Part shown: positions 45,777 through 51,722 of the stretch, in pieces
Position numbering within the stretch: the first letter of the stretch is position 1
Layout of the letters: every line of letters begins with the position of its first letter
Assembly: GCA_951406725.2 (NCBI GenBank)
Contig: OX597816.1
Coordinates: forward strand, 23,746,001-23,810,000
DNA length: 64,000 bases
Source: Octopus vulgaris
Lineage: Eukaryota
Direction: 5' to 3'
Notes under the pieces: model-generated
Databases searched by the model: none
The model's input: the letters and a program-made list of their open reading frames with translations, nothing else
Told to the model about the DNA's origin: nothing
Translations under genes and position numbers: made by a program

Positions 45777-47127
45777 AAATTGGATAGCTAGCTAGAGAGA
45801 GAGAGAGAGATGCAAGCATAGCCGTGTGGTTAAAAAAGTTAGATTTGAAGCTAATCACACGGTTCCGGTTTCGAATCTATTGCAGTCTCGTGACACGTTT
45901 CATTTAGGAGGAATCTACGCGGAAGCCTATCAGATAATCTATATCTGTTCGTCAATGATAGACTTAATCTGTCACCGGTTTCTTTAGGTTCTTTTGGCGT
46001 CTCGGGCCTTCTTTAAATCTCTATTGCAAGTATTGAGACCAGGTTTGTAGCTTGTGTATGGTCTACAAATCATGGTTTCTTCAATTTTTCTTCTCAGCAG
46101 TTCTAAAATTCCTGCAAGAAGGTCATAGATGCTAAACTATCTTGCTTGTAGATATGTATATTCCTCCACAAACTTTAGTCCTTGTTACGATGTGATGGCT
46201 TCTATGCCTCAATGACCGTGAAAGCTATACTAGTGAAGGGTAGGGTCTTCCATCTGGGAGAGGTTAAAGGATAGAGACGAGTTTAATGTGGCCCACTTTT
46301 TGCCAGAAATAAAAATAGGTTTTCGTAGGGTGATCACTCCTACCAAGAAATAAAACAAAATTAGAGAAGTATCGATGACAATTCGAAACCAAGATCTGGG
46401 AGAGAAAGGCCTTCTGTCAAGGAAAGTAAAATACTGAAGCAGAGCTGAAAAAAGCAGGGATCCACTTGGGGAGAAGTAGGAATGACAGCCTCAGGTTCGA
46501 ATACAGAAGAGAAAAGCAGTTAGTGGCCTGTGCTCCACAGGGAGCGAAATACTTATCAAGAAAGACATGTGTATTAACCTGTTACACTGAAATTGGTATA
46601 CCGATATTTAACAGCTATCTACTTTAACCAATAAACTATGCACATTACAGCATAGAGTATACAGGCAGAAACAAATACTTGTGAATAAAAAGATGAAGAT
46701 AAAGCAAATAACATATGCGTAAAAAAATGCACTAAAACAAGTATAAAGAAAATTAATGGAAGAATTATTTAGAAATGACAGTTAGTGGTGTTTGATGGAT
46801 TCCATATGGTGAGTGCTGGGCGATGTTTGGTAAAATGGCCGCTGAATTTGTTTCATATGCCATAAGAGAATGATATGACATTTCTCAATGGCGACTAGAG
46901 ATATTGTAGATTGACTATAAATTTAATATTAACACGGTCTGCCTGTCCCCGTAAGCATCATATATACAACATAATTTTCCCCCCGAGTATTATAAACATC
47001 TCACCTCAATCTCCACTAGTGTATTTTTTTTATTTTATATTGTTTATTTTTTATTAGTTTCTTATTTTTTTTATGTCCACCCGATGATATCTCGAAATCA
47101 ATTTTGATTAATATAAATGTAGCTTAC

Positions 47128-47136
47128 TGCTTAAAG
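47128..47136 (-). other. Candidate 9-nt microexon CTTTAAGCA
   Basis: Minus strand TTTTTTCCCCCCTCCATGCAG|CTTTAAGCA|GTAAGC within a duplicated conserved block. Confidence 0.5.
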
Positions 47137-48659
47137 CTGCATGGAGGGGGGAAAAAATTGATCACTTGGAATTTTACGCTTTCGAGATTATTAACTTCTG
47201 TTTATTGATAGCCTGACTAATACCAATGATAGCATGATTCCAAAACTGGTGTTATTTAAAAACGTGTGTTACTGCGTTAGTCTTCAGTATTTCTTTTTTT
47301 TTTTTATCAACAGTACAACAATACTATTCTCATTTTCTTTTACTTTCCTCATATTTTCTTTAAATTTGTTTGATGTGTAACGAACATAAGAAAATGAAAT
47401 ATCAAATATGATATACCATAAAGAAAAGAAAAACCGCCATGAGAAAACAAAAGAAAATAACATTGTGTTTCTTTCTCTTGTGTGTCGTCTGCTCTTTCCA
47501 TTTGGTCACGCGCATCGCCTGTTCCGTGTATCAAATTTCTGTTGGCACTAATATCACTCTCGCTTTCCTCCGCTTCCTCCTCATCCTCCAACCTGTTTCT
47601 CTCTGTCTCTCTTCATGTACAGTAATAGCATATATCCAATTCTCTTTCTATCTCTCTCTCTCTCTCTCTCTCTATCTATCTATCTATCTATCTATCTATC
47701 TATCTATCTATCTATCTATCTATCTATCTATCTATCTATCTATCTATCTATCTATCTGTAACACCTGTTTCTTAGTCCCTTTCCAACTAACTTTCACATT
47801 CATGCTGTGTTTCCCTTCTTATTGTTATCTTTTTTTCTCTCAGTTTCTGTGCACAACACGCACACACACACAGACACACACATGCATCATAGGATGCATA
47901 TTCCATATAATTTCATAATTACACGCACACATACACGTACACAGACACACACGAACACAAATACGCAAGCATACATATATGCGTGTGTATGCCTGTATAT
48001 ATATATATATATGTGTGTGTGTGTGTGTGTATGTATGTATGTATGTATGTATATCTATACACACACACTCACATATATATATGTATATATATATATATAT
48101 ATATATATATATATGTATGTATGTATGTATGTATGTATGTATGTATATCTATCTATGTGTCCGTGAATCATCATCGTCATCATCGTCATCATCGTCGTCA
48201 TCATTATCATCATGATCATCATCTTATAATATACTCTACCAGAGTGTCGACTACCGCCTCTTTTGCTCTTCTGCGATAGAGTAGTGGTTGTTGTGGCTAT
48301 CTTGAAATAAGTTATATTATAAGTTTCAGTCCCACCACCACCACCACCAACGCAGAGTGGGAGAAAGAAAAGAAGAAGAAAGAAGAATTAATCTCTTACT
48401 CCACTGGGAGTCTTATTTAGCAACCCGAAAGAATGAATGTAAAATTTCAACTGAGAGTGCAGTTAGACGGCACAAATACCGTCATTCGTTCTATCCAATG
48501 TTCTTCAGGCTCTGCCATTTCGTTACCGTGATGGCACGAGCATGGTTAGCGGTAAGGAGGAAAGGGTCAAGAGCAGGTGCACCTCGGGCGTCGCTTTCAT
48601 AGGTTTTATGGGTGCGGCACTTTTAGGTCGGTTGTACAAGCCTGTAGAGAGCTCAGGGG

Positions 48660-49695
48660 CGTAGTGGGGGAAGGAGCGCAAGTGCAAGGGATTGCTCGGG
48701 CGGGTAGGCAAATGAAGTGTTGTCCGGGCGGGTGCGCAAGTTCACGGATGGGCTACACAGGAGCACAAGTTCACGAGTTGCCCGGGCTGGAACACAAGCT
48801 CAAAGATCGACCGGGCGGGAATGAAAGTTCGAAGGTTTCCCAAGCTGGAGTGCAAAGCTCAAATGTGCCTGGGCGTGGATGTAAGTTCAAAAGTTGCCGG
48901 GACGGGAGTGTAAGCTCAACGGTTGCACGGACGGGAGCACTAAGATCAACGTTTGCCTAGGTGAGATTGCAAAGCGCAAGGGCTTCCAGGTCTGGAGCGC
49001 AAGCTCAAAGGTTGCCTAGGCAAAAACGCAAAGCTCTACGGTTGCTCGGATGGGAACTTAAGCTCAAGAGTTGCCCAGGCGGGAACGCAAAGGCCAAAGC
49101 TCAAATGAATGAATTTATATACGAATGTATAGCACGTATGTATGAATGGGTGAATGAATCTGTGGGTGGGTGTTTGTGTGTGTGTGTGTGTGTGTGTGTG
49201 TGTGTGTGTGTGTGTGTGTGTGTGTGTGTGTGTGTGTGTGTGTGTGTGTGTGTGTGTGTTTGTGTGTGTGCATGTATGTAATAACATTGGTCTCTCCTTC
49301 AACTGCGCCCCACACATAATAATTAAGGGAGTTGCCATCTGAAGAGTTAGATGGCCAGATGTTAAGGGCAATGTGGTCGCAGAAATTGTCTGACAGCCAT
49401 GACTGGGTTCTCCCGCTCGTGTGGCATGGTACAGAGTCCTCCAGGCACTTGATCTAGGCCTCCGTGTTTAGTGTGAGGTCGTGTGGGTAGATGAATGGAG
49501 GCATGACGTTGCTTAGGTGGGGGAACAAAGCTCAAAAGTTGCTTAGGTGAGGGCTCAAAGCTCAATGGTTGCTCGGATGGGAGTGCAAGCTCAAAGATCA
49601 CCCAGGTGGATATACAGGCTCAAGGGTTGACCGAGCAGGAGCGTAAGGCCCAGTGGCTGCCCAGGCGGGAACACAAACTCAAGGGTTGCCCGGGT
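48660..49695. repeat. Degenerate GC-rich ~29-bp minisatellite in two blocks (~48660-49105 and ~49510-49695)
   Basis: Units such as AAGTTCACGAGTTGCCCGGGCTGGAACAC and AAGCTCAAAGATCGACCGGGCGGGAATGA. Confidence 0.8.
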
Positions 49696-50484
49696 TGCAC
49701 ACACACCATTGCAACACTACCGTGATGCCTCTGAGTTAGTGTGTGCGTGTACTTTTGCACGTGTGTTTGTGTGAATATGTATACGTATGTTTATGTACGT
49801 ATGTATATGCGTCCGCATGTGTGCACACACAGCCGCACGTACATACACATATGTACGCATACATCACACATGTTTTCAACTAAGATGAATACTTTAAATA
49901 TGCACAGATATGCACATATTATGGTGCATCAAATATGCACGAATAAACTCAACACAACACAGATGCTCACTAAGACAGCGCATATATATGTGTCTATCTA
50001 GTTACATAATTTACAAGTGTGTGTGTATCTGTCTTTGTGTGTCTATGTTTCTACGTGTTTATATGTATATCTAAGTATGTATACATGTAAGTTTGCACGT
50101 ATGAAGACGTATGTAACTGTGAGTACAAATGTATGTGTCTACGAAAGCATGAATGAGTTAGCAAGTGTATGATATTTCTAATACACATTTGCATGCTCAA
50201 CTTTATAAAACTCTGCTCACAATAAAATTAATCTTAACACGGCCTTCCTTTTCTCGTTATCATCATATGTAAAACACAATTTCTTTTTCCTTATTTCTTC
50301 TTTTCTCCCCACCACTTCTTTTTTTTTTTTTTGTTATTGTTTTGTTTCCCAAGTACATATATATATATATATATATATATATATATATATATCAACCCTC
50401 TCACCTTAAAATTCTACTGCTGGTCTATTTTCCACCCGATGATATACGTAAAAATCAATTTTGATTAATATAAATGTAACTTAC

Positions 50485-50493
50485 TGCTTCAAG
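50485..50493 (-). other. Candidate 9-nt microexon CTTGAAGCA (paralog of 47128-47136)
   Basis: Minus strand CTGAT..TTTTTCCCTCCACGCAG|CTTGAAGCA|GTAAGT. Confidence 0.52.
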
Positions 50494-51722
50494 CTGCGTG
50501 GAGGGAAAAATTTATCAGTTGGAGTTTTGCACTTTCGATATTATTAATTTTCGTTTATTGATAACCTGAATAATACCCAATGATGGCGTGATTCTCTATC
50601 ACTGGATTTCGGTAAAAGCACATTTTAGTTTTTAATATTTTTTTCTTATTTCTTCTTTATCGACTTGCTTTTGCCTCTTAATTCGAGCACACTGTTGCTC
50701 AAAGATATTGCAGCTATGTTGGTTAGTGTATTGCCCATCCCAACACATTATTTATTCATTCAGTTATCTATCTGTTTATTAATTTGTGTTTGGTGGGGTT
50801 TTTTTTTTTACGATATGGAATCGCAGCGTCCATTATAAGTTGGATTAAGTAACTTAGTATAAAAGCGTATTAAAGTACTGACTGGACAGACACTCTATGT
50901 GTAGATGAGTTCAAATGTACAGCAGGGGGTTTGTTATGTTTCTAAGTCGAGCATCTCATTCTACATCACCTCAATTAGCGTAGTAGTAGTAGTAGTAGTA
51001 GTAGTAGTAGTAGTAGTAGCTGCAGCAGCAGTAGTAGTAGTAGTAGTAGTAGTAGTAGTAGCAGCGGTGGTGGTGGTATGGCGGCGGCTGCAGTTGTAGT
51101 AGTAGCAGCAGCGGCGGCGGTTGATGGTGGTGGTGGTTGTGGTGAAGGTAGTAGTAGTAGTAGTAGTAGTAGGAGTAGGAGTAGGAGTAGTAGTAGTAGT
51201 AGTAGTGGTAATAGTAGTAACAGCGGCGGTGGCGGTGGTAGTGGTGGTGGTGGTGGTGGTGGTAGTGGTAGCACCAGCAACAGCAGCAGTAGTAGTAGTA
51301 GTAGTAGTAGTAGTAGTAGTCACTGCTGCTGCTGCCGCCGTTGTTGTTAATATCATTGTTGTTTAACCCTGAGTCGACTCGAGCAGCTATGACCAAAGTC
51401 ACCTAATCCATCGCCGTTCCAACTTTGTTTCGGGAATCATCTATCACGGACTACATAATACGAGGCAAAGTGTGTGTGTATGTGTGTGTGTGTGTGTGTG
51501 TTTAAGTGAAACAATTTAGCTGTTATTTCTAGCACGCCTAGCAATCACATAGCGCTGTTGTTCTCAGTTGTTCGTAGCTCAGTTTTTCCCTTTCACTGGC
51601 TGGCATTTTACAAACGCTCCTTTTTCCAACATTGAAGAAATAAACAGCGGATTATTTTACCCAAATAGAAACCAATTGTATGTAGTGGTTTATTATCTAC
51701 GTTTTATATACTAAACCAGTCA

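Follow-up and report, generated by a model that had tools for sequence, protein, structure and literature searches.

A duplicated splice-like block between a FAM167-like and a glutamate-receptor gene of Octopus vulgaris: a candidate two-donor cassette exon

The window analysed here, a stretch of 64,000 nt of Octopus vulgaris DNA, includes two related blocks, copies A and B, that lie in a gap of 624 kb, with a FAM167-like gene on one side and a glutamate-receptor gene on the other. The two genes are divergent, and the gap is upstream of both. The FAM167-like gene is 505 kb downstream of the blocks. In its first coding exon an acceptor precedes the ATG, which points to a non-coding minus-strand leader somewhere toward the blocks. 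The glutamate-receptor gene includes exons of 15 and 30 nt, the first of which is 45 kb from its upstream exon. Thus, genes built of small, distant exons exist here.

The duplication of splice-like blocks is confirmed. The original prediction placed paralogous blocks at 47077–47241 and 50432–50594; in self-BLAST they are 84.5% identical over 168 columns, with the limits given in Table 1. It also saw weaker similarity from 46929 and 50234, and this proved to be a distal pair with 51/64 identical positions (79.7%, self-BLAST) and a score of 76, where 100 shuffles reached at most 28. The whole element covers ~300 bases per copy, and the copies are 3.4 kb apart. A DNA search of the O. vulgaris genome finds it exactly twice, as copies A and B, and a 25-nt pattern allowing up to 2 mismatches again finds just these two genome-wide; the core pattern had no match in metagenome contigs. 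Each copy is an AT-rich 165-nt block with homeodomain-type words. The spacer resembles the sequence upstream of copy B faintly at most. Along the minus strand, identity between the copies is 51/60 far upstream, 35/45 near upstream, 8/9 in a central 9-mer, 32/33 just downstream of it, and 17/22 further down. It declines from 97% at the centre to ~60%, or to nothing detectable, within 60–150 nt.

Table 1. Features of the two copies and their spacer. Donor scores are from rough ad hoc matrices (see text).
Feature	Position	Strand	Remark
Copy A distal conserved block	46914–46977	-	51/64 identical to copy B; shuffle test
Copy A distal donor GTGAGA	46999–47004	-	Score 6.2
Copy A long exon form, 132 nt	47005–47136	-	Stops in three frames
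Copy A conserved core	47076–47240	-	84.5% identical to copy B; two genomic copies
Copy A near-invariant 33-nt element behind the 9-mer	47095–47127	-	32/33 identical to copy B
Copy A proximal donor GTAAGC	47122–47127	-	Score 2.0
Copy A 9-nt candidate microexon	47128–47136	-	Base 47133 differs from copy B here, not in organism E
Copy A pyrimidine tract and CAG acceptor	47137–47160	-	Three T>C changes in organism E
Copy A branch-point-like motif GTGAT	47161–47165	-	CTGAT in organisms E, D and B
Spacer between copies	47241–50218	.	Microsatellites, a 29–30-nt minisatellite, a high-copy repeat fragment near 49290–49500
Copy B distal conserved block	50219–50282	-	Self-BLAST; shuffle test
Copy B distal donor GTGAGA	50399–50404	-	Score 6.3
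Copy B long exon form, 89 nt	50405–50493	-	Stops in three frames
Copy B conserved core	50431–50594	-	Self-BLAST and genome search
Copy B proximal donor GTAAGT	50479–50484	-	Score 2.6
Copy B 9-nt candidate microexon	50485–50493	-	No change among the organism E differences listed
Copy B pyrimidine tract and CAG acceptor	50494–50513	-	Two pyrimidine-to-pyrimidine changes in organism E
Copy B branch-point-like motif CTGAT	50514–50518	-	From sequence

On the minus strand, both copies present a branch-like motif, a pyrimidine tract, CAG, 9 nt, and GTAAG, in that order. This is the arrangement first described, in which the TGAT branch-like motif takes the form GTGAT in copy A and CTGAT in copy B. The branch A is 25 nt from the exon in copy A and 21 nt in copy B, and the AG-free zones of the two copies are 26 and 36 nt. 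A TGC at 47141 in copy A belongs to the acceptor; copy B has CGC there. Both copies also carry a second, homologous and stronger donor, GTGAGA, which the first reading of the sequence overlooked. Use of this donor would lengthen the exon to 132 nt in copy A and 89 nt in copy B. The segment of the long forms from the conserved 5′ part to the distal donor is freely variable in length, which fits non-coding exon sequence. A terminal coding exon, reading 12 codons through the first donor, is possible, as its stop is placed where the indels between the copies start and the sole other difference between them is synonymous. It is not favoured: in the O. vulgaris lineage the second codon of copy A is a stop, and the host search found nothing upstream.

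How often such arrangements arise by chance was estimated with splice scores from our own rough ad hoc matrices, built on consensus frequencies, with the threshold set at the candidates' level. On this scale, 10 other cassettes occur in 1,064 kb, counting both strands (~0.002 per 165 nt), and donors scoring at least 6 number 84 in 553 kb of unique minus-strand sequence (~0.02 per 150 nt). Among 71 low-copy local duplicate pairs, copies A and B alone have a cassette in both members. The chance expectation is ~0.17 cassettes over all 18 kb of low-copy local duplicates; it follows that a genome-wide scan would meet some chance cases. From -150 to +165 kb, strong cassettes number 12 on the minus strand and 4 on the plus strand (p = 0.08, post hoc), and over the whole 624-kb gap exon-like cassettes are about equal between strands (33 vs 37). 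CpG content and strand skews give no sign of a minus-strand transcription unit.

Alignment to a related octopus, organism E, a check proposed with the original prediction, shows both copies retained. The comparison draws on 40 of 144 differences, so the block counts are minimum values and the p-values may come out too low. Among the differences listed, AG, GTAAG, and the GTGAGA of copy A are untouched, and all five changes in the tracts are C/T exchanges. Substitutions listed affect at least 8/328 block bases against 79/1590 in the flank (one-sided p = 0.025). Taken singly, and again among the differences listed, copy B stands above its flank in conservation (at least 3/164 vs 26/385, p = 0.011), and copy A has no significant excess (p = 0.29). 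Copy A of organism E has the consensus CTGAT, and its alleles at 46998 and 46993 bring the bases behind the distal donor nearer to copy B. Two changes in copy A, in the branch motif and in the 9-mer, are O. vulgaris-lineage departures from the shared state. The two 9-mers are identical in organism E. It had been argued that only one phase, encoding F/L-K-H/Q, is stop-free in both copies; this holds in the O. vulgaris genome and falls in organism E, such that both the F/L difference and the single-phase argument rest on one lineage-specific base.

Two putative RNA runs, with library types not on record, were compared with the blocks. Run X19 has a 409-nt contig (depth 3.9), colinear with 46951–47358, that crosses the acceptor of copy A and its two donors; no joint or loose end is listed for it. 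Run X22 has no piece on either core among those listed. Because the library types are unrecorded, neither run speaks for or against splicing; pre-mRNA, DNA, and chromatin fit equally. A miRNA or snoRNA gene is ruled out, as all 71 Rfam rows (E up to 5) lie clear of both cores and fold z-scores of -1.2 to +0.9 on both strands reveal no stable conserved fold.

Cassette rarity and the pattern of change in organism E support an exon-like reading of the minus strand. We tentatively suggest, at somewhat under an even chance, that the copies are a duplicated two-donor cassette exon of an unannotated minus-strand non-coding or 5′-leader transcript. The host would be either a long non-coding RNA or the FAM167-like gene, through a 5′ leader of great length. 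Each copy would offer one acceptor, if used, and two donors, for an insertion of 9 nt or of 89/132 nt. The near-invariant 33 nt between the donors may bind factors that choose the donor, and each copy would be included irrespective of the other, so that a transcript may have neither, one, or both, with no exclusion between them. Selection on splicing may have preserved the core and distal block as the remainder of the duplicated unit decayed.

This proposal draws on a rare cassette being placed at the identity peak, in the one pair of 71; on a donor scoring at least 6 at a homologous place in both copies; on the C/T-only tract changes, spared splice dinucleotides, and lowered block substitutions among the organism E differences listed; and on the post hoc minus-strand lean of strong cassettes. 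Counting against it, a C/T exchange in a C/T run is also the commonest neutral change, and the strand skews, the CpG content, and the about equal cassette counts over the whole gap give no sign of a minus-strand preference. Most lncRNA exons are less conserved than the 105 nt upstream and 64 nt downstream seen here, an extent of conservation that a coding microexon or an enhancer would fit better.

An enhancer-type conserved non-coding element, duplicated and serving the FAM167-like or glutamate-receptor gene, is an unlikely though serious alternative, in which the splice-like pattern is coincidental. The position in the gap, upstream of both flanking genes, suits it, as does the failure to find a host gene in those 624 kb. 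In O. bimaculoides, many chromatin loops lack a gene at an anchor, and the study's authors consider such anchors possible regulatory elements (10.1101/2025.08.29.672809). Both copies retain CCAAT words and the Pbx-Hox-like TGATTAAT, which had been put forward as a sign of an enhancer. The motif is indeed present, but it is unremarkable and is no enhancer evidence, with 5 occurrences in the 64-kb window against 7 expected (0.018 per block). Moreover, an acceptor, a branch motif, and two donors would all be accidental, and the pyrimidine tract accepts C/T exchange and length change, as a genuine tract would.

Slightly less probable, and likewise unlikely, is a pair of coding 9-nt microexons (L-E-A or x-L-K-H/Q) in a minus-strand gene of small, widely spaced exons, the long donor yielding a poison form. 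The 9-nt length and flanks conserved on both sides agree with it, and the neighbouring receptor gene has exons of such size. In addition, two accession numbers, CAI9719072 and CAI9719073, are placed between the flanking genes, and 147 kb downstream there is an isolated 31-nt cassette whose sites are strong and whose phase is compatible. However, the AG-free zones are short next to those of the receptor's two small exons (58 nt or more), just one copy retains UGC, and the L-E-A frame has a stop in copy A in the O. vulgaris lineage.

The large minus-strand host gene originally envisaged was not found either. A splice-bounded exon finder was run over 1,064 kb and 200 kb further right. The Pfam search, which is blind to small exons lacking a domain, took in 480 sequences, either candidate exons or ORFs. 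Of the 346 candidates within 200 kb it included 150, and 30 more were chosen by eye further left; of the minus-strand ORFs it included 150 of the 391 upstream and 150 of the 790 found downstream as far as -160 kb. No coding host emerged in the 624 kb, where nothing was seen but transposon-type domains, a single C2H2 stretch on the plus strand, and hits below threshold. The best upstream candidate has no octopus protein among 1.84 billion representatives. The sole match of candidate L004:3148-3291 is a bacterial repeat protein, at 33% identity summed over 8 repeats, and was judged spurious. Candidate 26968–27135 and most of the GC-rich unique islands look, in our reading of their translations, like transposon remnants. 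Ten long transposon ORFs in the gap have no exact-sequence match in the protein collection.

It is improbable that the blocks are a neutral or decaying relic that now does little, whether they arose as a short, old duplication or are exons left behind by a lost gene. The lineage-specific changes of copy A and its lack of excess conservation among the differences listed accord with decay, and among about a thousand scanned windows a few cassettes would turn up in duplicates by chance. Against this, the steep fall in identity away from the centre is not expected of a neutral duplicate of one age, and copy B is conserved above its flank among those differences.

Mutual exclusion of the two copies, a further part of the original prediction, has nothing to support it: the 9-mers are 3,357 nt apart and both multiples of three, leaving no steric or frame barrier to joint inclusion, and the best 16-nt docking-site pairings within 123 kb are not the same in the two copies and score at, or close to, the maxima of shuffled sequence, not above them. 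In sum, the exon-like minus-strand reading is supported, and the F/L difference with its single open phase, the large coding host, and exclusive use are not. A long shot is a tandem doubled switch in an unrecognised octopus coding gene, in which each acceptor would lead to a 9-nt microexon or a stop-containing long exon, giving zero to two tripeptides or decay, with copy A diverging in the O. vulgaris lineage. Such a doubled microexon-or-poison switch, if true, would be an unusual design. A mere non-coding cassette exon or duplicated enhancer would be an ordinary conserved element of local interest.

Duplicated conserved non-coding elements, i.e., enhancers, occur in gene deserts. The octopus copies resemble them as AT-rich 165-nt blocks with homeodomain-type words upstream of two divergent genes, and differ in that their best-conserved centre is a complete splice cassette. 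Poison exons are alternative 5′ splice site exons coupled to nonsense-mediated decay. Here the likeness is one acceptor, a frame-neutral short form, a long form (132 and 89 nt) with stops in all frames, and a highly conserved setting. In contrast to poison exons, for which a coding host is needed, the octopus copies have none found, and their unit is tandemly duplicated.

Neural microexons dependent on eMIC/SRRM4 (PMC8797185) share with the copies a length of 3–27 nt divisible by three with canonical AG/GT, a branch point near the acceptor, a weak 5′ site, and conserved intronic flanks, the last here judged from the identity profile of the paralogous copies and among the organism E differences listed. 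The octopus copies differ by a short AG exclusion zone (26 and 36 nt) in place of a long one, UGC near the 3′ splice site in one copy, as part of its acceptor, a second and stronger donor, and no coding host found in 624 kb. With tandem duplicated, mutually exclusive homologous exons (PMC9741552), they have in common two consecutive homologous units from a local duplication; unlike those exons, they comprise 3 codons, are identical rather than differing in peptide in organism E, and have no steric, frame, or pairing barrier to joint inclusion. If spliced, the copies would mark an unannotated transcript in the 624-kb gap and a duplicated exon far below the minimum of 7 residues set for the human catalogue of tandem duplicated exon substitutions (PMC9741552).

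A search of the 2.8-Gb genome found only two copies of the element, blocks A and B, accompanied by a second, distal conserved pair (see table). In both, the minus-strand order is a branch-like motif, a pyrimidine tract, CAG, 9 nt and GTAAG, and the original prediction of two diverged paralogous blocks with 9-nt minus-strand cassettes is thus borne out. Identity between the copies is maximal at the centre (8/9 in the 9-mer, 32/33 in the next 33 nt behind it), is 78–85% upstream of the cassette, and further out is either absent or so faint that 7–18 of 300 shuffles equal it (60 and 150 nt upstream). 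By our own rough splice scores, based on consensus frequencies with the threshold at the candidates' level, 10 other cassettes of that level occur in 1,064 kb. This corresponds to a chance expectation of roughly 0.002 for one block, 0.006 for the local duplicates of the window and 0.17 for the whole set of 71 local duplicate pairs, of which only the A/B pair has a cassette in both copies. Chance is thus an unlikely source of the pattern in this window, although scanning the whole genome would turn up a few cases by chance. An Rfam-type RNA reading was rejected, as neither block gave an Rfam match or a notable fold (Rfam search, fold test).

Features of the locus and its surroundings (window positions; negative and plus-signed positions lie outside, relative to window base 1; L0xx, flanking sequence pieces)
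Feature	Position	Strand	Remarks
Block A	47076–47240	-	84.5% identical to block B
Block B	50431–50594	-	84.5% identical to block A
Second (distal) conserved pair	46914–46977 and 50219–50282	-	80% identity
FAM167-like gene	coding exons -458914 to -459606, -476763 to -477014	-	nearest gene on one side
Glutamate-receptor gene	start +165828	+	nearest gene on other side
Lone 31-nt exon-like cassette	-99952 to -99982, in L033	-	strong sites, unique sequence
Two-finger C2H2 stretch	L038:6747–6959, ~43 kb left of window	+	Pfam E 3e-6

The 9-nt anatomy originally described stands but is incomplete, a stronger distal donor in each copy having been overlooked. This second donor, AG/GTGAGA, scores 6.2 in A and 6.3 in B, against 2.0 and 2.6 at the 9-nt donor; donors this strong are expected about 0.02 times per 150 nt. 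Read from the acceptor to this donor, the predicted exons are 132 nt (A) and 89 nt (B), and no frame of either is free of stops. When the A-rich linker was aligned automatically, the two distal donors were left unpaired. Alleles of organism E, a related octopus, at 46998 and 46993 bring the bases behind the copy A distal donor closer to copy B, which suggests that the two donors are homologous.

Relatives were compared as contigs from 4 of 24 listed sequence runs. The organism E contig over 46200–47568 carries 58 substitutions and 21 gap letters, and that over 50409–50957, outside which the copy B distal donor lies, 29 and 22. Thus, both copies are older than the split between organism E and O. 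vulgaris. The cores of A and B differ by 17 substitutions, about four times the E-reference divergence in the core, from which we infer that the duplication predates the split several-fold. Among the differences listed (40 of 144), those in core A are at 47133, 47152–47154 and 47165, and those in core B at 50449, 50503, 50506 and one 1-nt gap; all five in pyrimidine tracts are C/T exchanges, and AG and GTAAG are untouched. Since these 40 supply the block counts, the counts are lower bounds: at least 8 substitutions fall in the 328 bases of the blocks, against 79 in the 1590 of the flanks (p = 0.025; singly, B p = 0.011, A p = 0.29). For the branch-like motif of copy A, organisms E, D and B all have CTGAT; the GTGAT seen here is thus particular to this genome. 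At 47133, organism E carries copy B's base, and organisms D and B that of this genome. It follows that organism E has the same 9-mer in both copies, with two stop-free frames in each; the claim of a single stop-free phase is right for this genome but not for organism E.

The host search covered 800 kb left and 400 kb right of the window. Past the glutamate-receptor gene come an FG-nucleoporin and more plus-strand coding exons; the annotated FAM167-like and receptor proteins are accounted for without the blocks. In the 624-kb gap, 480 candidate exons and ORFs, drawn as top-ranked subsets of longer lists, were compared with Pfam; the matches were to domains of transposon type, apart from a single C2H2 stretch on the plus strand and hits below threshold. 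No coding host was recognised among them, and the large minus-strand gene envisaged for the microexons was not found. Such a scan misses small domain-free exons: the receptor's true 15-nt coding exon (L017:7238–7252, plus strand, 45 kb behind exon 1, ~211 kb from the window start) and the following 30-nt exon (L018:751–780, plus strand, ~215 kb) were listed, yet were indistinguishable from background. P0023, one annotated O. vulgaris receptor isoform, lacks the 15-nt exon and has exon 1 in another frame. Two accession numbers fall between the neighbours' (071 versus 074/075); if numbering follows position, two annotated proteins would sit in the gap, and the C2H2 stretch, which resembles a retrotransposon tail, could be one. 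An acceptor upstream of the FAM167-like ATG places that gene's leader exon toward the blocks, although 505 kb is far. Strong cassettes near the blocks number 12 on the minus and 4 on the plus strand (p = 0.08, range picked after the fact); strand skews gave no sign of a transcription unit. The lone 31-nt cassette is phase-compatible with the 9-mers, and alternative acceptors would reduce it to 26 or 24 nt.

Other elements were noted. Two tracts of a GC-rich degenerate 29–30-nt minisatellite, in which a CA repeat and part of a high-copy repeat intervene, lie between the blocks (48450–49700), and a degenerate 5S rRNA-derived copy (51723–51840, plus strand; 58 bits, Rfam cut-off 38) lies 1.1 kb from block B. 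The retroelement ORF at 17134–18460, presumably GIY-YIG/Penelope-like, is present twice in inverted orientation, with 10-nt repeats at the flanks, and has no Pfam match. L027–L028 (plus strand, ~146–154 kb left) hold an apparently intact non-LTR retrotransposon with an endonuclease/reverse-transcriptase-like ORF of 1131 codons, flanked by a direct repeat (98–99% identical, 9.3 kb apart). Exons of a HEXXH metallopeptidase-like gene occupy L065–L067 (minus strand, ~552–570 kb left; weak Peptidase_M90 match, E 5.5e-4).

Sequence analysis establishes the duplication, a constraint peaking on the cassette, a full 3′ splice signal, two donors and the long-form stops. We suggest that a minus-strand transcript would use the predicted acceptor together with either the near or the far donor, and that the almost invariant 33 nt separating the donors would govern which of the two is chosen. 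As no coding host was recognised among the candidates scanned, the likeliest carrier of these putative alternative exons would be a leader or a transcript that is non-coding, a reading we favour tentatively. A duplicated enhancer would account for the missing host but leaves the cassette unexplained, and we regard it as unlikely. Coding microexons, which best account for the flank conservation, require an unseen gene and seem quite unlikely. No barrier was found that would enforce the mutual exclusion originally suggested as a possibility: the copies lie 3,357 nt from each other, either 9-mer would leave the frame unchanged, and no docking site common to A and B was found, so joint inclusion would be unhindered. 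That the element is a relic agrees with the weak signal and copy A's two derived changes but is at odds with the identity gradient, and is improbable. To summarize, the element is real, constrained and duplicated, with an exon anatomy that its two donors make richer than originally described: a candidate exon for which no host was recognised among the candidates scanned.

Literature listings on octopus or cephalopod microexons, duplicated or mutually exclusive microexons and octopus FAM167 gave no mention of this locus; the exon tables of one preprint could list the element. Compared with eMIC-type microexons as described in PMC8797185, A and B agree in their length, in the branch point, in a weak 5′ site and in the conservation of the flanks, whereas the long AG-free zone is not matched. 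As to UGC, copy A has a TGC that is part of its acceptor, where B has CGC. On this balance, and with no host recognised among the candidates scanned, we do not class them as eMIC-type. The human catalogue of tandem duplicated exon substitutions (PMC9741552) comprises exons of 7 residues or more. A and B resemble those in being consecutive and homologous, but in organism E their 9-mers are the same, and nothing was found that would bar the inclusion of both.
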